A stretch of 34,085 nt of DNA from assembly GCA_000934665.2 (NCBI GenBank), contig KZ539078.1, positions 1 through 34,085 on the forward strand. Direction: 5' to 3'. The DNA comes from Catajapyx aquilonaris (lineage: Eukaryota). This document shows, in pieces, positions 15,508 to 34,085 of the stretch. The notes beneath the pieces were generated by a model. That model was given only the letters and a program-made list of their open reading frames with translations, was not told where the DNA came from and did not search any database. Made by a program: the position numbers and the translations under genes. The number at the start of each line of letters is the position of its first letter. The first letter of the stretch is position 1.

Positions 15508-15907
15508 TATATCATGTAGGTATACAATGTAATGGTTTAACAATTGAATGTATGTCGGTGTGTGTACAGTACATTGTTGAGATTGTCATGCTTATATCTC
15601 GGTGAAATATAACTCCAGGAGTGTACAATTTTGGATTTGGAATTAAGTTCTGTATGGCTACACACGTATTTATTTTTTTACAAATCGAAAGGGGTCTAGC
15701 TGCTAATTTTCTGAAAATTTACTGAATTGACATGGAATGACCCATATCTGATTGTTTCTATTTAAAAAAAAAAGAAAAAAAGAAGAAGAAACGTTAATAG
15801 GTGAGAAGAAATAAAATGCAATAAAGATGGTCAGTGATTACCACCAATGTTACAACCTCGGTTACAACATTTCGGCTTAAGTCTTCAGAACAACACATGT
15901 TATGAGG

Positions 15908-16245
15908 GAGGCGGAATGGCGCTGCGGTAACGTATGCGCCCACGGATGTTAAGGTCCCGGGTTCGATCCCAGCCCGGGATTCCCCTCTTCATCTCGTGCA
16001 GCGTTTAGCGCCATATCTGACATCGTCTTGGGTGGGATTCCGATAGACTAACCACCCGGGGGAGTTCACAAAATGACCACATAATTATGTCAATGCACTT
16101 GACATTGCACATTCCCGTGGGCCCAGGCGCTGCATAAAAAGGCACCCATATGTACTTGGACAAATAAAGGTCCTTCCTGTATACCTTAGGGTCAAGCACT
16201 GCCCGATTATTATTATTATTATTAATTATTATTATTATTACTATT
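15908..16245 (+). mobile_element. tRNA-derived SINE
   Basis: Pol III A-box TGGCGCTGCGG (15917-15927), B-box GGTTCGATCCC (15960-15970), ~230-bp body and (TTA)n tail from ~16207. Confidence 0.8.
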
Positions 16246-16607
16246 ATACTATTAACAGCACATGTTATGAATATTCCCCATAATGCCATTTTGTTCACAG
16301 CAGTGTGACTAGATTATGCCACATACAGTGCATTGTTTGATTTTAGAAGCATAAATGACGGACAGAAATTGGGAAGTCAGTGACATGACCATGGACCTTG
16401 TGAGTGTGACTGATGGGAAAAATATCAAAATATTCGTGGAAATTGTTCCCTATGCGACATAATGCAGTATTCGAAAAAGTGAAGCTTTTGGTACATACAA
16501 AATAATATTCCACGTGTTATTTGGGTGCTAATAAAAGAGAATGCGCTTGAGGTTATTTATGCATGCAAGTTGATTACAACAAAGAAAACAGAAAATGTGC
16601 ATTTTAA

Positions 16608-19600
16608 TTAGAAGCACTGGAATGCAAATCCAATCAAGAGGAGAGGCCATTGAAGGGTCCCGGAGAGAGCCCCTGAAAATAAAATATTGAACCAAATAGT
16701 AGGAAATATCCGTAACTGACAATATTGCGGCTCATTACCTGCCGATCTGTTGTTCGTCTGAATGTGAAATTGCTGCGACGGGGATTCAGATCTACCTCCT
16801 GAATTCTGAGCGTCTGCAGTGCAAAAATATTTGGTTCCAGGCTGCAGAGAACCTATCCAGCAGTTTGACCTGTGACCTGGAGGCATGTTGGCTTTGCATG
16901 ACCTTGAAATCTGACCATGTCCAGCAGCTGGTTGGGTCGAGCAGGTCACGACCATGTCAGGGTCACCACACAAGCTGCTTTTGGAAACATCAGGTTGAAC
17001 CCATGTGACATCCACTGCAGTGCTTGATGCATTGTCCTGTTCAATTGCGTCGAGGATTCTAGGAGGTGCTGCATTTTGGAATAATTCAATAAGGGGTTTT
17101 AATTATAGGGATAACAATTACCAGTTGGACTTGTTTGGACAGCGACTGTCGTGTTGGCGGTTTCCCAGCCATTTTCGGTGATTCCGTAGACTATGATGTT
17201 GTAAAGGCCGCATGCTTTCAGGCCGTTCACAGTCAGCGTCTCGCGAATTGTGTCGTATTCGAAGGTAGGATCACCTTCGTCAGCTACAACTGTCACCCTG
17301 TACCGTGACACGCACCTTGGTGCTTCATCAGGAGAATCCCATTTTAAATAGGCCGAATTGGCTGTGGCATCGACGTGCACTTTTTTGGGCCTGCCCGGAA
17401 CTATACAGGAGAATGAAAATAATGCATTGTGTTTGAAGCAACTTCGGTAGCGTACGTGAACATGATTGCAGTACCTATTTCTTCAGTTCTTGCACTAATG
17501 GAACTGATCTGACCCACATGATGCGGTGTGACTCCTGAGACTGTGATACTGTACGTAGTGCATGGCTCCAGACCTGTCATGGTACATTCGTTTACAGAGT
17601 CCTTACCGGTGCTTTTGGAATGAGTGGTTCCGTTTTCGGACACAAATGAGACTTGGTACCTAGACACACAAGCCAGGGCTGTGGCAGGGTAGTCCCAGGT
17701 GACCTTTATGGAGGAGGAGGTCACTTGAACCGCCCTGAAATCCGGCGGTGGACCAGGTGCTGCAAGTAGAGTTGCGATCAAAGACTCCGAACTTATTCAG
17801 TGCACCATCTTGCCTTACCATCCTCCTCAGTACTTGAAAAGTGGTACACGCATTTGTTGTAAGACTGATTGTTGTACTGAGTGCAGACGGCAAGTGTGTA
17901 GTCAGTGCAAGGCTCCAGGCCGTATATGCCTTGAGCGTACCACTGTCCACCTTGAGATGCATTGTAGTATTTTGTCACCATTTGGTCGTGCCCCAAAAGG
18001 TGAGCTGATGAGTAGACAGCCTGCAATCCTGCAGTGCACACTGGATAAGTGAAGTTCATGATGGCAAAAGATGGTCCGACAGTGACATTTAAATGCGTCG
18101 CCATCAAATCGTCATCTGCAATAATTCGCATCGTCAATGGTGTAGTTAGTGTTAGACAGTGTTTACAGCAGCTTTGGCACTCTACCTGTCGCCATTACTC
18201 CTTCGACAGTGACTTGGGCCGTTGGTCCTTTACGACCGTGTGAGGTCACAGCCCAAACTTGTAGCACATATTTGCGGCACACATGCAAGTCGGTCAGGGT
18301 TACACTTGTAAAGTTGGTTTCGATTTGTTCCTTGTTATCATCAGAAAATCCGTAAGAAACGACGTAATAATTGGCACAGACTTCCATATGATTCGGGTAG
18401 CTCCAAGACACTTGCAACGTGTGGGGTTGGTTTGATTCTGCCGTCAGATGAAGCGGTTTGCTGAAAGCTAAGAAAAACAACGCGATGGCATTTTAAAAAT
18501 ATTAGACTATTGCATAAGAATGTACAGACTATGCGGTGCATTCATTTAGAAGGAATATGACTTGGTACAGAGCTAAGGAAAGTGATTCTAATACAACGAT
18601 AGACGTACTTGTTTCACCCGTGACTGTGGCTGCAGGAGCATTGGGATAGTCATCATACGAAGCTGTTACGCTGAAATTGTACAAAGTGCAAGCTTCCAAT
18701 CCCTTCATTTGATACTCGCATGACGCTTCATTGCAAGTTACGGTGTGTTCCTGTCCGTCTGAGGCCTTCAGCACATAAAAGTTGAAGTCCGAGTTGTTGC
18801 AAACTTGTGCGACCCATTGCAGAATAGCGTCGTAAAATCCAGTGTGGACCTGCAATTTGCTCACCGTGTGCTCAGTTTCTGAAAAAAGATTTAGTTTCAT
18901 GACAAAATAAATCATAAACGACGTTATTGTATATCACTGTCTAACCATTTCCCATAACCGGTCCATTATTAAAACTGGCATGATTGGTGCTGTTTTGACC
19001 GTCGATTGTCACTGCCCATACTCTGACGTCGTAATCCTTACAACCTTGTAGGTCCTTCAGAACCATACTCATTTGAGTAGTTGTTACAATCTTGGAGAGC
19101 TCGCGTTTATTGGATGGTCCGTACCAGACGACGTAATGATTTGCACACTGAGGATATGTTAGAGGCTTGCTCCAATTCAGGGATAGAGTGTGTGGGTTGT
19201 ACGAACCGGATCTCAAATGAATGGGTTTGCTTGGAACTGCAGCAATTCAAGTAATTGATGTAATGGAACATAATGCGGAATATTAAACGTAGGACCAGTA
19301 TGAAACTCACCTGAAGGCTCGGTTCTGATGACATTACTGAGGTCTGACTTGTTCTGGAACTCGCTCCGTCCTTGAAGTTTCACTGACACTTTGAACGTGT
19401 AATTTGTGCAAGGTTCGAGTGCCAGGCAAACAGGGGAGGAACATATTGCTGTGAAAGTGCTGCTGTCCACTGAACAGACATCGTTTGTGACGTTCATTTC
19501 ACAGTGATTGTTGTCACTAGCGTATATTCTTACGGATTCTATCAGCCCTCCGCACTGACTGAAATTCCAGTCTAAGAATGCGTTGAAAGGACCATTTGCA

Positions 19601-22600
19601 GTGGCGGAGACGTCTGTAATAACTTTTTCGGAATCTGTACAAACATAATTGCTATGATCAGAAAATTAGCACTCATCAGCATCCATGTTATAGTTGAATT
19701 GTTTATTTTGAAAATATGCTCTGCTCAGGACCGGTTGCACCTTTGAAGCTAGATAGTTTTCTTTTCTTATGCTGTATACTAAAAGTATACTGACAGTGAG
19801 TATACGTATTCTAAGCTACTATTTAAATGTTCAAGGGTAAAGGTTTCATGGCTGTACGATAGTAAAAATATAATACATGTGAGACCTGCATTGTTTTTAC
19901 TCTCACACGTACTCATGCTCGTGGTGAAGGTGGTGTTGCTGTATACTCCAGCCTTTCCCTTTGGTGTGACCGCCCCAACACGAACGACATATTCGACGCA
20001 AGGCAGCACGTCTTCCGTAAAAGTCGTGTCTCTCGTGTGGTTTTTGTTGGTCCATTTTTGGCTTGTGATTGGCTTCATCTGCACGTAATATCCTGCAACG
20101 CAATCGGGGTTTTTCAGCGGAGGAAACCACGATATTTCCACCTTGTTGTTTGGTAGCTCTTGAATTGTAATAAGCAGTGGTGCGCTGGGGGCTGAGAAAG
20201 GGATTCGACTTGTTAAAATACGCTGTGAAGTATTTACACCAGTAACATTCCTGAAGCACATGCATGGGAAAGGCAGCACTCACGTTCTTCTGCGATTGTG
20301 ACAGGTCCAACAGTGTCTTCTCCCAATAGACATTCATCCGACCATAACTGAACAGTCACATTGTACTGCTTGCATGGAGTGAGGAGTCTAGTGGTGGAGT
20401 AAACGCATATGCCGCTACTTGTGTGGCAAACAGCAGCAAAATCTTCATCCTCAGTGAGTCTTTCCTTGTAGCCCGTTAATAGAGTTCTGAGACCCCTGGC
20501 AGTCTTCATAGCGCCGTTTCCAATATCGAATTGAATCTCAATCGTCTTGAGGCTTGTGGACTTGGCAGTCAAATTCACGATGGCATCTGAAAATTCGCTT
20601 TCCATTAATACAACAATGTTCGATAATAACAATATAATTTCTTACCATCATCACAGTATGATGCTGTAGCAGGTAGGTCGACTGAGGCCTCATTTCCGTA
20701 ATTCCTGGAGTCATTGTAAGATATGCTGACGCTGAGGGTGTAATCAAGGCACTTGTCCAGCGGGTGACAAAAATTAATACTGCAGGAAGTGTCGTCACAT
20801 GCATCGGCGTTGCTTGTGTAGCAAGTTAGCTTGCTCGTGTTTGAAGCCTTTGGAATTGCAGAAAGCATGTATTCTGACACATAAACCTGGTTACATGAAG
20901 GCAGAGTCCAGTTAAAGCTAACACTTCTTTCCTCCTCGTCATCGTCATCCTCATCATCACTTGATATATGCAGGTTGCCGACTGTGTCATTAAGACCTGC
21001 GAACAACGCAACATAAATGCAATCTAAAACGCTATTTCATAAGGTAAATTTAATCTGGCGGATTATTTCCTTTCTGCGCGCACCTAGGGAGTGTGCCCAT
21101 CCCTGGACAGTGTTCGACCAATCTCCGGTGACATTGTCGAACGTGGCCATTGCAACACGGAAGTCAAACAGTGAGCATGCAGGCACTGTCATCAAGGTCA
21201 CAGAAGTGTCGGTGACTCTCATTTCGAAGCTGGTCCACTCGTTCTCTAAATAATGTTCCTTGCATTCCACCCTGTACCAAGTGGGACAGGTGTCGTTTTC
21301 CCACGAGATTTGCACCAAGTTGGGGGCGGGATGGTCACTTATCCTCAAGCCTTTCACCACATCTGAGTCATAGAGAAGAGTTTATGTTATCTACTTGTGT
21401 AACACTCGTAGAGGTTTTGGGTTTGATTCCACAAGTCATATTTGGCTCCAGAGTCTCACTTAAAAATGAATAATTGTCTGTATAAACTGAAGGAACTTTC
21501 ACACTATATTGGGACAGACACGCTCGAGACGTCTCCAATCACTTTATTATTTTAAAGTGTTGGTTAGTGTAAATCATATACGAATGAAGAGTATGGCCAA
21601 GCCAGATTAATGCGGTATATTAAGTGGAGTAACTATTGCACATTGATTGATACGACATGATACTCACTCACCTGGGCATTCTTTCGGTAAACTTGCACGG
21701 ATCGGTTGGTCAGACTTGGGCTGTGACGAGATTAAGAGGAGGTGATTGACTGGTTTCTTATGCGGGGAGGTAGCTAATTGAAATACAGCATGATTGTGAC
21801 TCATTTTACAAAGAGTTTGTTTTATAGTGTTACAAATATTGCAGCGTGCTGAATTAATCCGAGAATATTATTGTGTGGTCCCGTCGCATTGTTTTCAACA
21901 TTATATGTCCTATGTAACAATGACCTGTTCAGTATCATGCACTCACCTGTGCAGATGATCCTATGATACTGCCTAAGATTATAACAATTCGCAAATTGCA
22001 ACCAGTCAGGGAAATCGAATTCATCCTTTGTAAGCAGCAGGAACTTCCGACACCAGCAAGTGTACGTCTCCGTCTACTGTCACTCGGTGGATGCCATATC
22101 TTTGACTCATCATATAGAACATATCAAGCCTAAGCGTACGTCTTGCAGGGCCACAACGAAGGTGTCATTTTTCCTGTTTACTTGCAATATTGTGATTACG
22201 CCTATCAACCATGACGCACAAATAAAGGCAGGTTCTTATGAATAGTCCTAGATAATTATGTTCCCATTATCTGCGCATCAGATTGCTTTAGGGCACGTCC
22301 TGGGGGTCGTTTGCATCTCATATTGCATCTCATACAAATGCAGATTGTGTTCTATCCAGTAAGATTTCTTGACAGAAAGAACAGAAAACTATAGAAATAT
22401 TTGCTCACCGATGAAAATGCAATTTGCTATGGAACAGCATGAATTATGGCATGATATAAATTAGAAAAATCACGGCATCACGTTAATATTGAGCAGGGAC
22501 TGATATGGCAAGAGAGACACTCACCTGGGCATTCTTTTGGTGAACTTGCACCGATCCGTTGGCCAGATGTGGGCTGTGAAGAGATTTAGGGGGGTGGGGC

Positions 22601-22895
22601 CGTTGTCTGGTTTCTTATGTGGGAATATCGATAATTAAATATCGATTTACTCATTTTACAAAATGTTTGTTTCATCTTAGTAAAACAAATTGGAAACTTT
22701 CAAAAGCAATTTGCTGAATTACTCGGGGAATTGATTGGTCCCGGCTTATAATCAGCAATATATCTGCCCTGTGTAACAAAAAAGCTTTTCAGTATAATTA
22801 TACCACTCACCTGTGCACTGTCCAGATGAACCTATGATACTGACTAATATGATAAAAATTCCCAACGTGCTGCCAGTCAGTGAAAGCGAATTCAT
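16608..22895 (-). CDS. FN3-repeat cell-surface protein A (signal peptide, 12 FN3, GPI-like tail; ~1273 aa)
   Basis: Exons: 22895-22811 (MNSLSLTGSTLGIFIILVSIIGSSGQCT), 21773-21672, 21362-21084, 20996-20646, 20586-20284, 20191-19913, 19634-19311, 19236-18946, 18878-18609, 18467-18186, 18115-17819, 17759-17475, 17400-17122, 17068-16739, 16672-16608 (GALSGTLQWPLLLIGFAFQCF*). All internal exons are phase 1-1 with lengths divisible by 3. FN3 motifs W..P, Y.V and L.PC..Y are present. Confidence 0.85.
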
Positions 22896-23242
22896 CTTTT
22901 GGTCACAGCAGGAGCCTCTGATACTATAGCAAGAGTAGAAAAAAAGACCTGGGGATGTTACTTATCTTGATACAACAAAGCTGTATTAAATGGCACATTA
23001 AGCCTATAGTCATACTTCTTGCAGGGCCACAGCCAAGGTGTAATTTTCCTGTTTACTTGCTATTGCGATTACGCCTATCAACCTTGACGTACAAGTAATA
23101 TAAGATGTTATTATAAATATAGATATGTTTCGCAGTATAATCGCTTTAGGGCAGGACGTAAGGGTCATTACTACTCGTGTTAAGACCATTTTTTAAACAT
23201 AAATAAGTGTCTCATCCAGTAAGGATTCTTGACAGAAAGAAG
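21662..23242 (-). repeat. Tandem duplication (~860-bp period) of the promoter + exon 1 + exon 2 region of FN3 gene A
   Basis: 21662-22382 aligns with 22515-23242 (actcacctgggcattcttt; tcttgcagggccaca; atccagtaag..ttcttgacagaaaga). Confidence 0.85.
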
Positions 23243-23500
23243 AAGTAAGCGCTTTTATACCAATTAAAATGATGAAATGTTCAAATGTACAAGTGCAAAT
23301 ATGAGCTGATGGCAGCATGACCAATATTCAATGACTATGTCATCTGGGGCATAATCAAGAAAGAATGAATAGCATGTATAGACAGTAATGTTATCATAAA
23401 AACACAAGTAATAATAATTATCATGATAGTGCACGTTCTTCAGATATTTATTTTGGCATTAGTGCCGAGGGAAGTCTCAGGTTAAAATTTCCAACAAGCT

Positions 23501-26500
23501 CTACATTAACAACAGTGCGCTCATCAGCAAATGCATTATCACTGGGAATAACAATGGTACCATCTGCTTGTTCTGTCCGAGAGCAATTGCAGAATCTGTA
23601 ACAGTGTAGAGAAGTACAAAAATTAGTGATCCAGTTGTTCAATCGTTATTGGTAGTCCATATGTATAGGAACTCACTAGTTTTGTGCGTATGAAAACCCC
23701 AGCTGGTTGATGACGAATTCCCACCGTTGCTGCTGGCAAGTGAATGACACGAGTACTGCGTGTCAGGGTGAAGTGAACCCATCTTGCAAATCGACGGAAG
23801 TCCGGGAGGCTTGTCAGCTTTGCAGGTTAGACAAATTTTATTTCCGTTTCCGGCAGTGCAAGTCACCAGAAGCCTTGCTTTTCCGCACAAGCTGTTCTTC
23901 GGAACAACTGGTTGGGTCCACTTAATGTCCACGCCAGTCGCAGAGACTCTCGACGCTTCAACGTCCGTTACATCACTTGGAGCTAAGGAACAGGATGAAT
24001 TACAACATGATTCAAACCATTATTAAAGTGTCATATTATAATGTTTACTCACGGAGTAAGTTAGTATCAAATATCACAGATGATGTGTTAGAAGCCTTCC
24101 CACTGCCCTTCTGGATGGCAGCAACTGTCACGTTGTAATCCCCACAAGCTTTGAGGTCTGTGAGATCTATTTCATGCGACGTTGCCGTTAAAGTGGCAGT
24201 TACCAAATTACTTTCTTTCACCTGGATTTGGTAATAATTGATGCAAAGAGGAGCGACCTCTGGAGTACTCCAGACCAAATAAGCTGAATAGCGAGTGATG
24301 ATGCTAGCAACTTGTGGTCGTATCGGGGCACTAGGAACTGTATTGAAAATATAATATTGCATTACATCTCATATGCACTTTAACCTTTGTAAGGATTGTT
24401 ACGTCTGAATATGCTCGGGTACTTACGAAGAAAGGCAGCTGTGAATTCATATTGTACTGCAGGAGAAACTATTCCTGTCTTCGATATGGCAGCAATCCTC
24501 ACCCTGTAGTCTACACATGGGCCAAGACCACTCAGGGTTGCTTCAGTTGCTGGGACGTTCTGAGTGGAAATTACCTGATCATCTTGTAGCACCTCTACTT
24601 GATACTGAGCCACACAATTGGGAGCGACCTTTGGATGGTTCCAGGTCAGGTCAGCTGATCCACTTGTGATATTTGTCGCATTTGGTTCTTGCGGAGCACT
24701 GGGCGCTGTTGGACAGACGAGGATTGCATTACACTTCATCAGGCAAAATAAAATGCCCACGATAAGATGTATTTGTCAGCGGGAATGTCAAAGTATGAAA
24801 GAGCTCGTGTTGCTTACAAGCAGCGGTGAATTCATATTGTACTGTAGGAGAAGCCACTCCGTTCTTCGATATGGCAGCAATCCTCGCCCTGTAGTCTACG
24901 CATGCGTCAAGACCACTCAGGATTGCTTCAGCTGACGTCCTGTTTTTAGTGGAAATTACCGTATCGCCCTGCAACACCACTACTTGATAATGGGCCAGGC
25001 AATTTGGAGCGATCTTTGGAGGGTTCCAGGTCAGGACAGCTGATCCGCTTGTAATATTTGTCGCATTTGGTTCTTGAGGAGCACTGGGAACTGTTTGAAG
25101 GCAAGGCTTGCATTACATTCCAGACCAAATGCTTTGAATATTTTGTTTTTCAAGGCCTGCAAAGTCTGAAAATGCTCGTGTTACTTACGAAGAAAGGCAG
25201 CAGTGAATTCATATTGTACTGTAGGAGAAGCCACTCCGTTCTTCGACATGGCATCAATCCTCACCCTGTAGTCTACACAAGCGTCAAGACCACTCAGGGT
25301 TGCTTCAGTTTCTGGGACGTTCTGAGTGGAAATTACCTTATCACCCTGTAGCGCCTCTACTTGATAATGAGCCACACAATTAGGGGCGATCTTTGGAGTA
25401 CTCCATCTCAGAATAGCCGATTCGTATGTGACGTTGCTTGCACTTGGCTCAAGCGGAGCGCTAATATCTGTTTGGAAAGTAGCATTATTTTCATTACTCT
25501 CTAACTACCCGGATCTAATCATAGAATTTCAATATTATACTGACAGTGAAGGTTTGCAACATCCGGAGCTGAATTAAGTGAAAGAAAAATGCATGTTTTC
25601 ACACGCATTTTGCCTTGAACTTTTGATAATAGTCTATAGTTACTCACCGAGAAAGCCAGAAGTAAATTTGAATGGTGCACTTGGCGGAGAAGTTTCATTC
25701 GAAATGGAAGTAATAGTCACGTTGTAATCCGTGCAAGGTTCAAGTCTATTGACAGTTGTTGTGGTCGATTTTGAAGTACTAGTGGAAAGAACAGTGCCAT
25801 TCTGTTGTATCACCTGGACTTTGTAATGATCCACGCAATGTGTGCCTTTCTCTGGAGGTTTCCAGACCACATCAGCTGAGCTGTGCGTGATGTTAGTTGT
25901 ATTTGTTTGTAGCGGAGCGCTAGGAGCTGCATGAAAATTAGTCTTACGACACCAAATCTGAGCACAGTGTATTTATAGTCATTCATGAAGGTTGTTACTT
26001 ACGATAATAGGTAGTAGTTAATTTAATAGGTGTGCATGGAAGTGATAGATCTCCTGTGTGCCACATGGCAACGACCATCACCTCGTAACGTCGACAGGCC
26101 TCAAGTGTGACATTACACTCAGTTGATTCTGCATCTTGAGTCGAAATTTTCGAGTCGTTCAATGCCCTCACCTGGACTTCATAGTAATCTACGCAACTGG
26201 CTGGGGCTTTCGGAGCAGTCCAGGTCAGATGCGCCGAGTGGCTAGAGATGTCAGTTGCCATCAGTGTTGAAGGAGGGCTGGGAACTGCAAGCATAGTTAG
26301 CATTACATCCTGAAAATATGGTCTGACGAAATATACGTATGTGAATTCAATAGGAATTATTAGTGATGCGTTTTCTTATTATGCAATGAAACCCACCCAT
26401 AATGGATGTAGATGTGGTGTCATAATGTATCAGGTAATGTCTCATCGGGTTTAGTGCTTAACATAGGTGTAGTTGCCATCTTTGAATTCCGGCGTGTAAA

Positions 26501-29392
26501 AGCCCCGACAAGAGCATGGTAAGTGGTGCAAAGTGACACATCAAGAGCTATTTCAGTAGTGCTTGAGTTGAATTTAGACCATTCCGAACTGTTACGAGGC
26601 TTCAGATGAATGTAGTATCCACGAATGCACGTAGGGTTCTCCACAGGTATACTATCGGGTTCAAAAACTTTCGGCCACTTTATCCTGGGCTTGAAGGAAC
26701 CCTTAACACAAAGACACCTCCTTAACTTGGGGTCTGTGCGAAGGGTTGCTTCAAGACCAGGATAAAGTGGCCAAATGTATTTGAACCCGATAGTACATAC
26801 CAATTCATATACAGTCTGCCTCTGGTTCCTTCCAGGACGAAAGCCTCACTAAAGAATCAGTGACACTTGTCTTCTGGTTGACCTGCTGCTAAGCAATTCA
26901 ACATGTTTTTTTTAGAAACATTAAAAATAACCGTCACGTATATTGCGGACGCAGATCAGCAAATATTGCTCAAAGTCCACTCTATCGGAGGTGGGACGAG
27001 GAAGGAGTTATGAAGTCAGGTCTTAATCCCAAAAATCAGTTTAAAGAGTCGGAGGCGTCTTGCAGAAGCAGCAATGTAATTATTGTCATATCTTTGCCTC
27101 TCTGAAAACTGGTTTCTGGAGTGAACCAGCCATATTAGCATCTTCACACACCCTCCCCTTGAACTAGGATTTGGGCAGCGCATGACCTGACAGGCTTGCA
27201 CGAAAACATTATACTAGACCACTTTAATAAAAACAGGATAAAACTATCATATCAGAAATGTACTATGCATGCAAATTACTTCGCAGATTAGGATAAGTCT
27301 ACTCTTTCTCACATAATTCTAGTGTTAGCAGAAGTGTAGGATGGCGGCTACTTACGATCAGGAAGAGTGGTGATGTCTTCAATGAATAAGGTTTCATTTT
27401 GGTATGTGTCACTTGTAATGAGTTTGAGCTGTGCACTAAAGTTGTAATTAGTGCAAGGTTCAAAAGTATTGTCACAAAAGAGGGCGGTGCAACTTGATGT
27501 AAAATATGGGGTGAATTTACATATGTCGCTAAAGTTGGTGATTGTGCATGATGTTCCATCACTCGAGTTCAATCTAACGGAATCTATGAAATCGGTGCAC
27601 TGGTAAAAGCTCCAGTCCAGGGAGATGCTGTGAGGGTCGACAGCTTCTCCTTTGAAGTCACCAATTATCGCAGCAGATGCTGTATGGATAGGAATGTGTC
27701 ATAAGGTGGGAAAATGCACAGTGCTAAGAGTATTTTTAGGTGCTTACCGACACTGGTGGTGTAATTGGCGTATGTGTAGGGTCCATAATTTCCCCCTAAT
27801 TTGAAAGCTCTAACTCGAATATTGTAAGCAGCACATGGGTACACATTTACCGCGAATTCAGTGTCGCTTGAATAGGTCCATAATTTCGGCCAATCCGGGC
27901 TACTCCTTGGCTTTGTTTGAACTTGATAGCCATGAATGCAAGTGGTGTTTTCAGTTGGTGCAGACCACTTCAGAAGCAATCTGTCTCCTTGCTGCTCTTC
28001 GAATTCAATTGTTCCTGGTGGGCCAGGAGCTGTAGAAAAAAACCAACATTAATGCACTGCATTATTCCCTCATTATTATCGTCGGAGCTCAACATTTTAA
28101 AGTCACTGAAGTCATTAGTTGACATTACAACAAGACTAAAAACAGGTCTTACGTCCTCTGGGCATAAGAGATTCTCCTATGCTCATGGCACCCAACCGAC
28201 CATCGGAAGTCACTGTCCAAACTTTGACCTCGATCTTGCTGCATATTTCCTCGAAGCTGCTCCGAGTGATAATAATAGTGTTTGTAGTTTTTATCGTTGT
28301 TCGATTACTCTCATATATTGATCCATAGGAAATCTGGTATTGTTCAACGCAGGATGAGTAGTTGGCTGGTTTCTTCCAAGATACGATCAGGGTGTAATCT
28401 TTCATAGGTGTCATTTGCAAGTCTTCAGGTTCGCTGGATGCTAAATTGGAAAAGAAAATATTGATTACATTATCACGTTGCCTTTAAATGCTGGTTACAA
28501 ATTAGTGTTCGAATCCTCACTCGTAGATGCGTTCGCCACTTCAAAGTCAGGTTGGAATGCCTCATGACCTTGAAGTTGGACTTCTGCTGTGAAATGAACA
28601 CTTTCGCAGGGATGAAATTCATGGCAATAGACCATTTGGCAGTAGGTCGTCGAGTTATGATTTTCGCAAACTTCGTTTACATTGTGAACTGTGCAATTGT
28701 TTCCATCGCTTGAATTGAATCGAAGAACCGCAATGTTTTTCTGGCACTGTGTGAGTGTCCAGGATAGAGAGATGTGGTAGGGACCAATCGCCTCAGCTGT
28801 GAAGTTCACAATAATAACGCCACTTTCTGTTGAAAAAAAAGAGTACGAAACACTGTAGCAACTGCAGGATTAATGCCCGATTGCACCAACGAAATTACCG
28901 ATTCGATACCTCCTAACAGATCGTTAGCACACGTTAAAAGGGCTCCTAACTATCCATTAGGAGCTATCGGATAGGTAATTTCGGTTGGTGCAATCTGGCG
29001 TACAAAATGAGGCTACGTTATTCTGCAGCTGTAAAACATTTCCGAGGATCTACCTTGACTGATGATAGGAGTCAGGTTCACATCTGCGTCGTCCCCATCT
29101 TCGCACGCACTTCTCGATGCCTTCTGAATAAAACGAACAATTGCGTAAGTGTGTATCTCCAAATACATTAAAGATTAAATTTAAAAATTAACAGACTGCC
29201 ATTTAAATATTTCTTAAAAATGTATGTTAGAGAAAGCTGTATTTTCTTGATGACGAACTATTCGGATCCAGAATTTAGTCTGAAATCAACAAAGTTAATT
29301 TATCAGTAGCACAACCTTACCTCAGCAGCATGTCCACTTGAATTGAACGACAAGAGAAGGAAGAGCAGAACAGCTCTCGATCCACCTTCCAT
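23501..29392 (-). CDS. FN3-repeat cell-surface protein B (signal peptide, 11 FN3, GPI-like tail; ~1139 aa)
   Basis: Exons: 29392-29321 (gccATGg; MEGGSRAVLLFLLLSFNSSGHAAE), 29123-29054, 28826-28521, 28440-28153, 28029-27748, 27679-27356, 26284-26003, 25926-25648, 25467-25189, 25090-24818, 24705-24427, 24337-24053, 23982-23677, 23595-23501 (SAIALGQNKQMVPLLFPVIMHLLMSALLLM*). Phases are consistent. Confidence 0.85.
26430..26890 (-). pseudogene. Decayed FN3 pseudo-exon(s) within gene B, split by a MITE
   Basis: PVENPTCIRGYYIHLKPR...CTTYHALVGAF resembles exon 28029-27748 but frameshifts and stops (GNYTYVKH*). The 5' piece AGQPEDKCH*...SWKEPEADCI* is also broken. Confidence 0.7.
26652..26793. mobile_element. 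142-bp MITE, TA target-site duplication
   Basis: CTATCGGGTTCAAA...TTTGAACCCGATAG, inner arms ggccactttatcctgg / ccaggataaagtggcc; TA at 26650-26651 and 26794-26795. Confidence 0.85.
28874..29000. mobile_element. PIF/Harbinger-like MITE in an intron of gene B
   Basis: GCCCGATTGCACCAACGAAATTACC...GGTAATTTCGGTTGGTGCAATCTGGC; flanks TAA/TAC (an imperfect TWA duplication). Confidence 0.6.
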
Positions 29393-31154
29393 GGCAACTC
29401 CTTATTGGTACTGCAGAGTGGTATAGGTTTACATCATAATCATAGTTTCCACGGTAGAGCCATATGCCGTATCTCCACCACTCCAATACCTGCACGGCTG
29501 CACTTGTCAAGATACTGCAAATACATTGACGCAGGTCAGTCAAGTATACATGTTTGGACCCCTACTGTTTGCGTGCGATAAGAATTTCCTAATGAACTCA
29601 TAATCCAGATAATGTAGCTCACTAAGCTTACGACATGTGAAGGTTAATATAATGATAGGATTTTCTTTATATTCTGTAATTTTGTAATTATAATTAGTAT
29701 TGGTACATCGAGCTCTTCTGTGTACACATAAGCCTTATTGTTATGCGCATCTCATGTCCGAGGTCAAATTATTACCCAAGGTATTATGCCTGCACAGGAG
29801 ATGTGAGTTTCTTAATCTAAGGTGGTAGTGGGCGGACATATCAGACTCTTGGGACATTCCCAAATGATAAAATGAAGGTCAAAATGCTCTCTCATTGTCT
29901 GTTTTGCTATGTGTGGGTGTGTTTTAATGTGGGTTCATAACGATTCCTACCTTGATATTGACATACTCCTATGCCCATTCTTTACGGAGGATTGTGGAAA
30001 TCTGCTTTACTGTACACGATGTAGGCATAAACTCTAGTATATAAAGTTCTTCCCCTCCAAACGGCATGTGCTTTGCCGATGTCATCGCCTGATGCAACAA
30101 AGGCACTAAGCCTATAAGATCCGTTACAATCGGAAGCAACGTCAGCAACACATTATCGCAATCCGATTAAAAGATACGATTCACCATATTGCAGATTGGA
30201 AATTCGCTGGAATGGCGGGGATCAGAGAGGTCGTCAAACTGTACCTCCGGCAAGGTTAATATTCCGCGATATTTATCGACACGTCCTTTCCTTATTGTAG
30301 CAGCTCATACTTGAGAGGGATTAAATGTCAAATTCAGATAATACCTAACGCCCATGTTTTGTCGGCCCCTTAGAGCTACAGCAAGGGCCAAAGTCTATTC
30401 CAATGTCTATAGCAAAATGTACTGCGATAGTATAAATTCTAGTTACATCAACTCCAGTTAAGTACCACAATATGATTACGTATTGTGAATACCTGCGTAT
30501 AATCGGAGATTTTTTATAGTGTGCTCTTTAGATAAGCCTATCTGGGATTGACATAAAATTTACAGACTGTTTCAGGCCTTTCAGCAACTTACCGGACCAT
30601 CCTCATGCTTAGTCAGCCAGCTTGTAATCAACCTCTTGTTACTGTTGTTGTCTCTTGAACCTGCCAGTTAAACATATTCGTGGAATATCAGGCAGCTTTT
30701 TTCCCCATTTAATTTACTCATCCTGCTACAGTATGTACCCCCGCGAGCATAAAGATGGGTACGGCAGGCCCCTTTTTGACCTTTCTTTATCCGACTCAAA
30801 TTAATGAACTCTTTTTGGACCGAGTTAGCTTCATCAGGCGTGTGTTCGTGTATTTATGACAGTATATATTTGATACTGTAATTGCTGAGATTGGCAGAGC
30901 AGCCTGCCGAAGGTGAGGGCCTGGCGTCTCCATGTTTATGATCGCGTGTGTATGATACAATGAATATCTTCAAGTGTGTGTCTCCGATGTATAGTAGTTA
31001 TTTTCGTACTTTGACAGGGTTTGAAAGATTCTATCACTTCACTGATACAATCACTTCTTTAATAATGAAAAAAATATCATCAAAGTGTCCTCCTGTAAAA
31101 TAATGACGGCTGGCACGAATACACACGGGCAGCACAGGCGGTTTGAAACCAGAC

Positions 31155-31677
31155 TCAGCAGAGCCACCTATTTTGCAATCTGCTGCACAACCTGATCTGG
31201 AAGCTGACGACCATCAAAGAATTGGTCGCGTTTGCTGCAGACATGTTCGTCATTGCAGCTGAAATTGAACGCAAATTTTTTAAAACTCTGATTGTCGCAA
31301 GTAATAATGCAATATTACTTACTCCAAGGAGAGGTGCAATAATTTGCGAATTTGCACGGTCCCTTTTCACCTCGAAGTGTTTCGGGACATATTCGCACGT
31401 TGTAATCCACGTCAGGTTGCACTTCTGTGATGTCAAAGGTGTCGTTTGTTTCGTGATTTGCATCGGTCCAGTTCTGATCTGCTTGCTTAATCTGCACTTT
31501 GTACTGCTGAACACAAGCAGGGTTCACTTCCGGGGAGGCCATCCACAGGAGGTTTCCGGGCATATTCCTCAAACCCGACGGACCCTCGTTCGCCAGAAAC
31601 TGTCCATAAAATAAGTGTGTTAATGACATATAAAATGTGTATACATGTTGAGGGAATTATTACCTTCTTCATCCATG
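31155..31677 (-). pseudogene. Relic FN3 gene fragment
   Basis: Exon 31599-31323 has intact splice sites but a frameshift (VSGERGSVGFEEY then ...PEVNPACVQQYKVQIK...VQPDVDYNVRI). The next exon from 31258 hits a stop at 31155. Confidence 0.65.
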
Positions 31678-32321
31678 GTTACCGTGTTTGTTCTCTCTCA
31701 TCCTTTGGCGCTATCGAATGATACATATTTTGTGTCGGATTGTGAAAGAGTTTCCAGGAGTGAAGAAACGGTAGTTTATTGGTATCGCTAAACATATTTA
31801 ACATTTAAATGGTCTTTATTAACTCAACTTTATTAATCATCAATGAGACAAGCATTTCATAATTTATATTCCAAGTGAATTGTCCTTTTCAATTTGCAAT
31901 TTTAAAACTAGAATTGCTTTATTTTTCAATAAGTAGCCACTTTAGCTACATTGAAAAGCATTGGCATTTAATATTATGTTGAGTAGAACATTAATAAGTC
32001 CCTGGAGATGTAGTTAATGTCAGGAATTAAGACATTGTGAGTATAATAATTATATATAATTTTTACCCACTGCATTGGCACATGAGGATTGGTCAAATCA
32101 TGTACGTTTTTAGGGTAGATTCTCTCGAAGTTATTTAAAAATTTGTCTGTTCCACCTAATAATAACATAATATTTTTAGCAATAGTTTTGACAAACGAAC
32201 CGTTTAATATAATAAGCATTTGGTGCCAAAAATTTCCAACCGATATACGGACACTCCTTTGAGATATGCAGTAGATATCCTGCCAACAATACTAAGGACT
32301 GCATTGTAGAGCAGCAAAAAA

Positions 32322-34085
32322 TTATAACAACAATGTGCCCAACAAAGAAGTGAACACCGGTAGCAACAATGCCAAGGTCGGTACTTGCTGCTGGAGGGCT
32401 ACTGCTGAATCTGTAAAAAAAACAGAGACTTTGAAATATTAGACAGATATGAACTTTTGCATGTCTTTTTTCAGTTTGCGCATGGTTATGATATGTCTAA
32501 TAATGATTTTAACCAATAACGAGGGACATTGCAGTAAGTTACTCTGGTACAAGTCAAAACTTTCTTTGCAATCTTAGCTGAGAAACAGGGCAGAACATGA
32601 CTGCATTATTCAGCTTAGGAAACCATTGTTGTGACGTCAGTACTGTTCTATGGCTATTTCACTTGCACTCACTTTTTTTGGCAGTGTGAAATTTGTAGCT
32701 TGTTTGTCCCGAGCTTCCTCCGTTGCTTTTGGCGAATGCAACGCATGAATACTGCGAGTCAGGTTGGAGGGAACTAATCCTGCAGCTGGATGGACTTCTC
32801 TTATCTGCTTCACACGTCTTGGAAGATGTCTTTCCATTTCCAGTTGTGCAAGTCACCTCCAGTCGTGCGTCTCCACATGAGCTGTAACTAGGAGTGACTG
32901 GCTCCGTCCACTTAATGTCCACTTCTGTTGCCGTCACCTTGTCCGCCTCGATTGGTATCTCAGGAGGAGCTGCATAGAACAGAAAGGACTGGAACTCTTG
33001 ACAGCAGCGTATGAAGTATCTCATAATATTACTGGTATTGTTACTCACGAAGCAAGGGGGTAGAAAAGTTATAGGTAGCACTTGATGGAGAAACGGTTTC
33101 TGTCTTCGATGCAATGGAAGAAATTGTCACACTGTATTCTCCACATGCTTTGAGAATGTTGACTGCTTTTTCAGTTGATGATGTGTTTAGAGTGGAAAGC
33201 ACACTGCGTTTCTGTACCAACTGGACTTGATAATGATCCACGCAGTTGGGAGCAACCTTTGGAGGACTCCACGTCACTTCAGCTGATGTGTAATTAATTT
33301 TAGTGGCATTTGGTTCTTGCGGAGCACTGGGAACTGTTTGAAGGCAAGGCATGCATTACATTCCAGACCAAATGCTCTAAATATTGTATTTTGCAAGGAT
33401 TTCAAAGTCTAAAAATGATCTTGTTACTTACGAAGAAAGGCAGCAGTGAATTGGTATGGTACTCCTATAGAAGCCATTCCAGTCTTCGATATAGCAGAAA
33501 TCCGCACACCGTAGTCTACACATGCGTCAAGCCCACTGATGGGTGCGTCAGTTGCTGTGAAGTTCTGAGTGGAAATTACGGAATCACCATGCTTCACTTC
33601 TACTTGATAGTAAGCCACACAATTTGGAGCGACCTTTGGAAGGTTCCAGGTAAGGTCAGCTGATCCGCTTGTGATATTTGTCGCACTTGGTTCTTGAGGA
33701 GCACTGGGCACTGTTGGAAAGAAGAGGCTTGCATTACACTTCAGACAAAATAAAATACCCACGATAAGATGTTGCATTTTTCAGGAATGTCAAAGTCTGA
33801 AAGAACTAGTGTTGCTTACAAGCAGCGGTAATTTCACATGATGCTCTAGGAGAAGCCATTCCATTCTTCGATATGGCAGCAATCCTCACAGTGTAGTCTA
33901 CACATGCGTCAAGCCCACTGATGGATGTCTCAGTTGCTGTGACGTTTTTTGTGGAAATTACCTGTTCATCTTGTAGCACCTCTACTAAATACTGAGCCAC
34001 ACAATTTGGAGCGACCTTTGGAAGATTCCAGGTCAGGTCAGCTGATCCGCTTGAGATATTTGTCGCACTTGGTTCTTGAGGAGCA
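32322..34085 (-). CDS. FN3-repeat cell-surface protein C, 3' portion (gene continues beyond the window)
   Basis: Exons: >34085-33820, 33710-33432, 33333-33049, 32969-32673, 32410-32322 (SAVALQQQVPTLALLLPVFTSLLGTLLL*). Phase-1 junctions; paralogous to the 3' exons of gene B. Confidence 0.85.

Follow-up and report, generated by a model that had tools for sequence, protein, structure and literature searches.

The R3 receptor phosphatases (PTPRB, PTPRJ/CD148, PTPRH, PTPRO and PTPRQ) carry heavily N-glycosylated ectodomains that consist of FN3 domains only. Contactins and NCAM-120 combine a signal peptide, membrane-adjacent FN3 domains and a GPI anchor; their N-terminal Ig domains do the binding, signalling proceeds via partners in the same membrane and, to our knowledge, their FN3 domains do not carry two pole cysteines each. 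Titin is intracellular, fibronectin and tenascin are secreted matrix proteins, and we know of no lipid-anchored form of any of the three. FNDC7 and its zebrafish relatives (fndc7a and fndc7rs1-4), which we liken to the present proteins by description only, are also multi-FN3 and exist in several related fish copies; in PMC6363392, both fndc7a and fndc7rs4 are reported from lateral-line support cells.

The locus described here occupies the minus strand between 16.6 and 34.1 kb (16608–34085) of the window, that is, the whole 34,085-nucleotide stretch of Catajapyx aquilonaris DNA analysed. All FN3-like frames lie on this strand; they form three head-to-tail paralogues (A, B and C), accompanied by a solitary relic exon and, within B, a decayed one. 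These are probably three paralogous animal genes in a compact cluster, the product of each comprising FN3-type domains only and a GPI-attachment-type C-terminal signal. Like the R3 phosphatases, the products are FN3-only and rich in N-glycosylation sequons (28–31), and would form long cell-surface rods; unlike them, they have a GPI-type end and neither a transmembrane helix nor a phosphatase domain. With contactins and NCAM-120 they share the signal peptide, FN3 domains near the membrane, the GPI-type signal and the lack of a cytoplasmic part, but they have no Ig domain. Their domains have the same fold as the FN3 arrays of the titin A-band, fibronectin and tenascin, which give the best PDB profile matches.

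The three FN3 genes are real and at least two of them, B and C, are transcribed. The joined exons are open from Met to stop over 1241 residues in A and 1110 or 1139 residues in B, depending on the choice of putative 5′ end, whereas C runs off the window and yields a partial product of 404 residues; the domain counts are 12, 11 and at least 4, respectively. A splice-site scan places phase-1 acceptors and donors at the borders of the FN3-like frames, and all 27 domain exons of A, B and C are phase 1-1, with lengths divisible by 3. The initial annotation, which proposed a tandem family of at least three head-to-tail paralogues plus a relic, with one FN3 domain per symmetric phase 1-1 exon, is borne out on each of these points.

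Gene A was modelled in silico, no A junction being among the RNA joints listed. Its signal-peptide exon (22811–22895), found by a hydrophobic scan and the joined frame, ends in a phase-1 CAG/GTGAGT donor. A decayed second copy of this exon (21947–22024), whose strong donor is not in frame with A1, lies within a 640-bp duplication (21634–22225 versus 22487–23098, 70% identity). Domains A1 (21084–21362), A2 (20646–20996; seven Cys and an acidic insert), A3 (20284–20586; no Trp and no BC-loop Cys) and A9 (17819–18115) were delimited by the splice scan and the joined frame, and A5 (19311–19634; X type, six Cys) by the splice scan. For A4 (19907–20191; K type, 33.4 bits), A6 (18946–19236; W type, 31.5 bits), A7 (18609–18878; 28.5 bits), A8 (18186–18467; W type, 44.2 bits) and A10 (17475–17759; 47.7 bits), the scan is joined by matches to Pfam fn3. 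The penultimate A11 (17122–17400; 37.1 bits) and the membrane-proximal A12 (16739–17068; 24 bits, five Cys by alignment) precede a 66-nt in-frame intron and the last coding exon with the GPI-type signal (16608–16672; stop 16610–16608).

Signal-peptide exons had been assigned to both A and B; the assignment for B is not confirmed as written. The putative B exon (29321–29392, hydrophobic scan) ends in a strong GTAAGG donor of phase 0 and reaches B1 in frame only through a weak donor or through a putative further 70-nt exon (29054–29123; phase 0 to 1, one Cys), which we infer from the open joined frame. Both 5′ exons are in silico, with no joint for them among the RNA joints listed. The splice scan delimits B1 (28521–28826; Cys-rich X type, six Cys), for which the FN3-like, low-confidence model cited was built on the B4-led alignment, as well as B2 (28153–28440; W type, 24.4 bits) and B3 (27748–28029; K type, 29.9 bits). 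The 3′ end of B4 (27356–27679; X type, six Cys) is set by an RNA joint to B5, which skips a decayed K-type FN3 exon (26426–26667) that has no donor and 32% identity to B3. The decayed exon carries at its 5′ end an inserted high-copy repeat (26715–26800, no strand assigned), with a summed depth of ~20404 in its bin and loose ends at 26735 and 26796–26798 in the DNA run X1. The chain continues with B5 (26003–26284; four Cys, 39.5 bits), B6 (25648–25926; 51.6 bits) and the recent repeat units B7 (25189–25467; 42.3 bits), B8 (24818–25090; 41.6 bits) and B9 (24427–24705; 47.9 bits), marked by a 385-bp tandem array (24403–25398). It closes with the penultimate B10 (24053–24337; 34 bits), the membrane-proximal B11 (23677–23982; 20.2 bits, six Cys) and a last exon (23431–23595) that holds the GPI-type signal, the stop codon (23503–23501) and 3′ UTR, with AATAAA ~20 nt before the end of the X5 RNA contig.

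Gene C starts within C1 (33820–34084; 41.3 bits, phase-1 donor at 33820), the 5′ part of which is cut by the window end, and proceeds through C2 (33432–33710; 36.2 bits), the penultimate C3 (33049–33333; 40 bits) and the membrane-proximal C4 (32673–32969; 28.3 bits, five Cys by alignment) to a last coding exon with the GPI-type signal (32322–32410; stop 32324–32322). An X5 contig spans 31882–32410 unspliced, so that the 3′ UTR covers 31882–32321 as far as this contig reaches, with AATAAA ~40 nt before its end. The lone relic exon (31324–31590; K type) scores 19.3 bits against fn3, below the cut-off, and has a phase-1 donor and no usable acceptor.

The X5 contigs join exons of B and C exactly at nine predicted GT..AG sites (CT..AC on the plus strand). 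The joints in B are 23595/23677 (last exon and B11), 23982/24053 (B11 and B10), 24337/24427 (B10 and B9), 24705/24818 (B9 and B8), 25926/26003 (B6 and B5) and 26284/27356 (B5 and B4); those in C are 32410/32673 (last exon and C4), 32969/33049 (C4 and C3) and 33333/33432 (C3 and C2). None of the nine is seen in the DNA run X1. In both genes the terminal exon continues without further splicing into 3′ UTR (70 to 440 nt), and the contigs stop 20–40 nt past AATAAA, which supports B and C being separate transcripts with their own 3′ UTRs. Apart from the decayed B exon, no exon is skipped among the RNA joints listed, the others linking consecutive exons; the combinatorial splicing suggested earlier is not supported by these joints.

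Of the 30 stop-to-stop ORFs compared with Pfam fn3 (PF00041), 21 match at E ≤ 0.01, and 17 of these exceed the gathering score. Seven of the 27 domain exons (A1, A2, A3, A5, A9, B1 and B4) give no Pfam fn3 match and are termed FN3-like by motif or by low-confidence model; hhalign probabilities against the family profile are low (2–48%), and the X-type model, from the B4-led alignment, is poor (pLDDT 63.3; FN3-like matches, best Foldseek E 0.018). The AF2 model of B11 (pLDDT 76.5) has a seven-strand FN3 fold, and all of its PDB matches listed are FN3 domains or FN3-scaffold proteins. A phosphatase or Ig domain was found in none of the 165 minus-strand ORFs scanned (30 + 135), in agreement with the initial annotation.

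The family changes by whole-exon duplication (B7–B9 and C1–C2, with domain identities of 63–76% among them), by exon decay (the B exon hit by the repeat and now skipped), by gene decay (the relic exon and the dead signal-exon copy) and by recombination or conversion between repeats. Symmetric exons permit such changes in frame, and exon number does vary (recent duplicates, one lost exon), which speaks for fast-evolving, diversified recognition or immune-type receptors that would gain repertoire when exons are skipped, duplicated or swapped in frame. We consider this reading unlikely. Values of pN/pS of ~1.0–1.3 occur in two 15-codon windows of the recent repeat (codons 43–64 and 71–85, roughly the C′-E region and the FG loop), but only there, and short-window values near 1 cannot separate selection from relaxation; overall dN/dS among recent duplicates is 0.31–0.60, and 0.20 in the membrane-proximal domain, so that the fast evolution proposed for these proteins is not supported. 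Two introns are conserved at least as well as their flanking exons (91.5% versus 84–86%, and 88% versus 79%), yet the contrasts are not significant singly (Fisher p 0.05–0.17), and conversion would explain them too. A search of 1.84 billion representatives returned no close homologue (best single-domain match, 36.5 bits), which is compatible with rapid diversification and agrees with the earlier remark that the proteins belong to no recognised named family. The DNA run contains additional contigs of 90–95% likeness that may point to further copies, but only three genes are seen, and the RNA joints listed connect neighbours, the decayed exon apart. The gradient from divergent distal to conserved proximal domains, also put forward in the initial annotation, mixes gene pairs (A–B distally, B–C proximally); A and B are equally divergent proximally (A12/B11, 44% identity; A11/B10, 29%). 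A diversified receptor system made up of A, B and C is not supported.

Of the 27 domains, 26 carry a Cys where the BC loop ends (A3 is the exception), and 24 have an EF-loop Cys, at the C-terminal pole; the latter is absent precisely from the final domain of each gene. Both partners are found at 23 of 24 junctions. To place these Cys, the domains were aligned to FN3 domains of titin and fibronectin and the model was analysed with DSSP; A7, A12 and B2 were assigned by hand. With one Cys per pole in almost all domains, and the C-terminal-pole Cys absent only where no further domain follows, the pattern suggests that disulfide staples tie consecutive domains, from the EF-loop Cys to the BC-loop-end Cys of the next domain; such interdomain disulfides would stiffen the chain. 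In the top three PDB matches (two titin chains and fibronectin), both Cys columns, defined as those invariant in an 11-domain profile, are occupied by non-Cys residues in all aligned stretches printed. The penultimate domains of A, B and C (A11, B10 and C3) share an invariant LKACG motif. The Cys do not pair off evenly: once its tail is removed, A retains 45, and A1, A2 and A10 have one extra Cys each. The membrane-proximal domain, previously described as a six-Cys FN3, has five invariant Cys in the alignment of A12, B11 and C4, the sixth occurring in B only.

Beyond the last domain, the tails of A, B and C consist of small residues, a polar spacer and a hydrophobic C-terminus of 13–20 residues, with no residues beyond, as the translations confirm for the final exon and absent cytoplasmic part described in the initial annotation. 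In B and C, the codon split by the last intron encodes Asn, followed by Ser-Ala, a polar spacer of 8–9 residues and a hydrophobic end of 17–20 residues. The A tail has Ser-Ala-Gly, a spacer and a short stretch of 13 hydrophobic residues that includes Gln and Cys. Inspection by general rules supports a C-terminal GPI-type signal in each protein. The products would enter the ER through the N-terminal signal peptide, the FN3 chain would be heavily N-glycosylated, and a GPI anchor would replace the hydrophobic C-terminal peptide, attached to a small residue right after the last FN3 domain. If one FN3 domain covers ~3.5 nm, the product would be an extended multi-domain chain of roughly 40 nm on the outer leaflet, without a cytoplasmic part. 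Such a protein could act only by adhesion or spacing, by coating the surface, or via partners that share its membrane; most likely, it would serve as an anchored glycoprotein rod in adhesion or in a surface coat.

The hydrophobic end might instead be a tail-less C-terminal membrane anchor, or be cleaved to release a secreted protein that is cross-linked through its pole cysteines into a matrix layer. GPI addition was called by inspection, the A tail is short and, as each domain has two surface Cys, intermolecular disulfides are on paper as possible as intramolecular staples. We nevertheless find an ending of this kind quite unlikely: B and C have classic small residues, the 8–9-residue spacer and a terminal tail of 17–20 residues without basic stop-transfer residues, and the exact absence of the EF-loop Cys from the three last domains fits intrachain partners better than random cross-linking from chain to chain.

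Returning to the GPI-type rod, its resemblance to R3 ectodomains could be taken to mean that A, B and C are anchored decoys or cis-modulators derived from an all-FN3 receptor tyrosine phosphatase, which lost its transmembrane and catalytic exons and with which they would compete for ligands. The ectodomain plan is the same (FN3 only, one per phase 1-1 exon), and a tapeworm protein, P0001, tops the representative search by summed score; it has 21 matched FN3 stretches as well as a transmembrane segment and the beginning of a phosphatase domain. However, many FN3 genes place a single FN3 domain in each phase-1 exon, and the P0001 score is a sum of weak stretches, none of which is among the best 40 (weakest, 15.2 bits). 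PTPRJ FN3 domains are among the PDB matches (7u08, 2dle and 7u01), but in the profile search 7u08 (38 bits) ranks below titin (8q6t, 155.7 bits summed), fibronectin (6xax, 78.8 bits), LAR-type phosphatases and tenascin. By sequence, PTPRJ is no nearer to these domains than titin or fibronectin is, and the specific likeness to R3 ectodomains claimed earlier is not supported; with no phosphatase remnant within the window, a decoy origin is distinctly improbable.

That the cluster represents exons of one long known gene, or alternative 3′ ends, with transmembrane and cytoplasmic exons beyond the window, is scarcely credible: C is truncated by the window end and the RNA joints listed include none for A or the 5′ part of B, but no C-to-B or B-to-A joint is among them either, no protein family is matched on the strand downstream of A (the opposite strand carries a zinc-finger gene), an in-frame stop follows each hydrophobic tail, B and C end in exons that run unspliced into 3′ UTRs with AATAAA near the contig ends, and a signal-peptide exon lies ~540 bp past the end of the B contig.

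Every FN3-like reading frame from 16.6 to 34.1 kb is on the minus strand, in animal-type DNA with a GC content of ~0.40–0.45 across the region; apart from a relic exon, these frames belong to three head-to-tail genes, A, B, and C, whose domain exons are numbered here from the N-terminus (A1–A12, B1–B11, and C1–C4). In a splice-site scan, almost every frame is preceded by an AG acceptor with two leading bases and followed by a GT donor with one trailing base, i.e., it is of phase 1-1, and the lengths of all 27 domain exons are divisible by three. Joining the exons by coordinates gives, for gene A (1241 aa), 12 domain exons between a putative signal exon and a tail exon; for gene B, 11 domain exons and a tail (1110 or 1139 aa, depending on whether its 5′ end has one exon or two); and for gene C (404 aa), four domain exons and a tail, the 5′ part of this gene lying past the end of the window. 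The translations carry 28 N-x-S/T sequons in A and 29–31 in B.

The contigs of X5, a sequencing run whose type is not on record, were mapped to positions 16000–34085, where the introns that they leave out are exactly the predicted ones, with CT..AC ends on the plus strand, i.e., GT..AG on the minus strand. At least nine such joints are found across the region (in plus-strand coordinates), six in gene B (23595/23677, 23982/24053, 24337/24427, 24705/24818, 25926/26003, and 26284/27356) and three in gene C (32410/32673, 32969/33049, and 33333/33432). None of these nine joints occurs in the DNA run X1, so they reflect splicing rather than a processed DNA copy; the X5 pieces listed show zero differences from the window sequence. 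A gene B contig ends at 23431, ~20 nt past an AATAAA, and a gene C contig, unspliced from 32410 to 31882, ends ~40 nt past an AATAAA; a contig end is no proof of an RNA end, yet together with the in-frame stops these ends speak for B and C as separate transcription units that terminate in their tail exons. The genes and their architecture are real. None of the joints listed falls in gene A or in the B exons upstream of B4, which are models predicted from the sequence; X5 cover is missing in some bins.

The N-termini of A and B are hydrophobic (Kyte–Doolittle 3.21 and 2.98, respectively, over 10 residues). The signal-like exon of B, with its ATG at 29392, ends in a strong GTAAGG donor of phase 0 and therefore cannot be joined directly to B1. 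A candidate 70-nt exon at 29123–29054, flanked by a good acceptor and a donor of phase 1, would restore the frame and add one Cys; together with the strong donor, it appears to fit better than the weak donor at 29338, which we disfavor as the end of the signal-like exon. The putative signal exon of A sits in a duplicated 640-bp block (21634–22225 versus 22487–23098, 70% identity), each copy of which holds one signal-peptide-like exon. The copy nearer to A1 (22024–21947) was rejected as the first exon of A and looks dead, since splicing from its strong donor would miss the reading frame of A1. The duplication may be all that remains of a paralogue lost from between B and A.

At the other end of the chain, the B and C tails are homologous. 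In both, the last intron splits an Asn codon, after which come Ser-Ala, a polar spacer of 8–9 residues, and a hydrophobic terminal stretch of 17–20 residues. In A, a 66-nt in-frame intron precedes the tail, which consists of Ser-Ala-Gly, a spacer, and 13 terminal residues. Nothing follows the hydrophobic stretch in any of the three, the stop codons lying at 16610–16608 (A), 23503–23501 (B), and 32324–32322 (C). The long open reading frame at 32179–32496 was rejected as the terminal exon of C: the RNA joint at 32410 imposes another frame, one whose stop ends at 32322. Translation of all three genes bears out the final exon described in the initial annotation, with a small-residue site, a spacer, a hydrophobic end, and no cytoplasmic domain. 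By rules of the big-PI type, signals for GPI attachment comprise small residues at the attachment site and two positions after it, a polar spacer, and a hydrophobic terminal tail. By inspection of the translations, A, B, and C have the layout expected of such a signal, and GPI anchoring is probable.

The Pfam fn3 profile (PF00041) matches 21 of the 30 stop-to-stop minus-strand reading frames at E ≤ 0.01, and 17 of these matches exceed the gathering score of 25 bits; counted by domain exon, 20 of 27 match at the same cut-off and 17 exceed 25 bits. The remaining seven (A1, A2, A3, A5, A9, B1, and B4) are without a Pfam fn3 match and reach hhalign probabilities of 2–48%; their Trp and L-x-x-C-x-x-Y motifs are in register. 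The predicted model of the membrane-proximal domain (pLDDT 76.5) is a seven-strand beta-sandwich with 193 PDB matches at E ≤ 0.001, and those listed are all FN3 domains or FN3-scaffold proteins. The model of the Cys-rich X-type domain is weak (pLDDT 63.3), with FN3 matches at E ~0.02. The all-FN3 architecture of the initial annotation accordingly holds for 20 of the 27 domain exons; given the Pfam-negative exons, their low hhalign probabilities, and the weak X-type model, it is not established for a quarter of the domains, for which it is likely. Domain A2 also carries an acidic low-complexity insert, an Asp/Glu codon run at 20927–20963 in the A–B region that read mapping flags as a repeat.

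Phosphatase and Ig domains are missing, as had been claimed: neither family matches any of 165 minus-strand reading frames, i.e., the 30 mentioned and 135 further ones of at least 40 aa that span the rest of the window and the intergenic gaps. I-set, V-set, and C2-set give no match, and Ig_J and Ig_ILCR1 appear only below the cut-off, on FN3 exons. The proteins resemble receptor tyrosine phosphatases of the R3 subtype in their ectodomain, likely all FN3, but lack both the intracellular tyrosine-phosphatase domain of these receptors and their single transmembrane helix with a cytoplasmic region, the RNA contigs running into the 3′ UTR instead. Unlike GPI-anchored IgSF molecules of the contactin and NCAM type, they have no N-terminal Ig domains.

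A profile of the three membrane-proximal domains gave 237 matches at E ≤ 0.001 among 1.84 billion representative sequences, all of them multi-FN3 proteins that score through many weak stretches. The best single stretch (36.5 bits) belongs to a 189-aa tapeworm fragment; by summed score, the top match is a protein, also from a tapeworm, that has a transmembrane segment and in which a phosphatase domain begins. The membrane-proximal exon of B and exon B9 found no match in word-based protein searches, the membrane-proximal domain as a single query against the PDB returned nothing below E 0.7, and the ESM Atlas returned generic fn3 clusters only. A profile built from 11 canonical domains places PTPRJ below titin, fibronectin, LAR-type phosphatases, and tenascin in a PDB search. 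At the sequence level, with database matches this weak and a PDB ranking this non-specific, the domains are generic FN3. The sequences searched, which include animal RefSeq proteins, contain no close, named homologue, and among them the family has no close relative. The name FNDC7 is absent from the ten named representative matches checked, the available part of a review of FNDC proteins (PMC9750624) is silent on FNDC7 structure, and literature searches for a tandem family of GPI-anchored, all-FN3 proteins came up empty.

Two Cys positions recur along the chains, as placed by alignment to titin and fibronectin and by the strand map of the model, with those of A7, A12, and B2, which the regular expression missed, assigned by hand. 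The first lies at the end of the BC loop, four positions ahead of the conserved Tyr of strand C, and occurs in 26 of the 27 domains (missing in A3). The second, in the EF loop and three residues before the tyrosine-corner Tyr, is present in 24 and missing exactly in the three membrane-proximal domains, which no domain follows; in the penultimate domains of A, B, and C (A11, B10, and C3), LKACG is invariant. The N-terminal pole of the FN3 fold carries the BC, C′E, and FG loops, and its C-terminal pole the AB, CC′, and EF loops. The two Cys thus sit at opposite poles, at too great a distance for an intradomain disulfide. In a chain without linkers, the EF loop of one domain would face the BC loop of the next, and a disulfide from the EF-loop Cys to the Cys at the end of the following BC loop could staple each junction. 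Both partners are present at 23 of the 24 junctions. Such a scheme would account for the odd number of invariant Cys in the last domain, which lacks the EF-loop Cys: the initial annotation counted six there, of which five are invariant and the sixth occurs in B alone. The first domain could be capped by a Cys located just after the putative signal sequence of A or, in B, within the candidate 70-nt exon. Against the staples, A1, A2, and A10 each contain an extra Cys, and the total in A is odd. Searches of the open literature for disulfides between FN3 domains brought up papers on antibody Fc and no case of junction stapling in FN3 arrays.

The domain identity matrix resolves five groups: a recent repeat (B7, B8, B9, C1, and C2; 63–76% identity), which forms a 385-bp tandem array of exon plus intron; the membrane-proximal domains (A12, B11, and C4; 41–56%); the X type (A5, B1, and B4; 31–35%); a W type (A6, A8, and B2); and a K type (A4, B3, a decayed exon in B, and a relic). 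The decayed exon (~26426–26667) has lost its donor, has a high-copy repeat at its 5′ end (summed X1 depth ~20404), and is bypassed in the RNA by the joint 26284/27356. The relic, a lone exon at 31324–31590 between C and B, has an intact donor and no acceptor. A gradient from divergent distal to conserved proximal domains, proposed earlier, mixes gene pairs: A and B share 26–46% identity throughout, proximal end included (A12/B11 44%, A11/B10 29%), and B and C can be compared only proximally.

Nei–Gojobori dN/dS values are 0.31–0.60 among the recent repeats and 0.20 for B11 versus C4, and are saturated for older domain pairs. Across the five recent repeats, 15-codon windows give a pN/pS of ~0.4 for the first half and of 0.98–1.27 for three windows, which cover codons 43–64 and 71–85. 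Between B and C, the intron at 24706–24817 (33711–33819 in C) is 91.5% identical (97/106), whereas its flanking exons are 84–86% identical, and the intron at 25091–25188 (33334–33431 in C) is 88% identical (86/98), with flanking exons at 79%; Fisher p values for these contrasts are 0.05–0.17 per comparison. Synonymous divergence between repeat exons (0.21–0.38) also exceeds intron divergence. Either conversion or faster exon change could lie behind the contrast. C1 is a mosaic of the kind made by recombination or conversion, its body resembling B9 and its 3′ end and following intron resembling B8. The rate data fit relaxed constraint plus conversion, and positive selection is not demonstrated. 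Apart from the skip of the decayed exon, the splice joints listed, from contigs in which rare variants are dropped, connect consecutive exons only, and three genes are seen. Second X1 contigs at 16657–16757, 27833–28035, 28348–28414, 31345–31474, and 33706–34054 show several differences from the window in each 100 nt, with a depth about equal to that of the main contig (e.g., 18.7 of 42.5); they represent additional paralogues or, alternatively, a second haplotype that is very divergent. The diversified receptor system envisaged in the initial annotation, comparable in principle to the Dscam, FREP, or VLR families, is possible but so far unsupported. Short of that claim, the locus is a solid but fairly ordinary gene-family annotation.

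The most economical reading is an anchored, glycosylated, possibly disulfide-stiffened rod serving in adhesion, spacing, or a surface coat. A fuller proposal, which we regard as rather unlikely, is that these are lineage-restricted GPI-anchored chains of 11–12 FN3 domains with every junction stapled, forming a rigid, protease-resistant, heavily glycosylated rod in which the C′–E and FG loops of the recent duplicates would be free to vary as a recognition surface. If so, an animal lineage would have built lipid-anchored rods from the commonest extracellular module, without the Ig heads or catalytic tails behind the known roles of related proteins. The Cys pattern supplies a rule for designing stiff FN3 chains that is simple and can be tested, and it could be of interest for FN3-scaffold engineering. 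The cluster is also a clean, small case of symmetric exons letting a gene gain and lose whole domains, with recent duplicates, a repeat-disabled and skipped exon, a relic exon, and a dead promoter copy side by side.

Repeats and other genes lie in and around the cluster. High-copy repeats at 28870–28960 and 30770–30880, in the C–B intergenic region and the first long B intron, reach a summed X1 depth of ~2000–8000 per bin with many loose ends. Just downstream of gene A, a very high-copy element (~15900–16100; summed X1 depth ~3645 in bin 16000–16602) shows a tRNA-like box B stretch by eye and is probably a tRNA-derived SINE; ARAGORN finds no tRNA in it, and Rfam and tRNA scans of the window give zero matches. 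A remnant of a MULE-type transposase occupies 5274–7918 on the plus strand over several frames, near N runs at 2457, 3954–4001, and 4802–4822; its MULE domain lies at 6320–6553, and the sole matches of the reading frame at 6608–7429 (273 aa) are tick and insect MULE proteins (36–50% identity). A single-exon C2H2 zinc-finger array at 12033–13604 on the plus strand consists of an 84-bp unit repeated 16 times (80% match), matches zf-C2H2 and zf-H2C2_2 strongly, and is accompanied by a further finger-bearing reading frame at 10988–11203 and a finger-like N-terminal one at 98–712.
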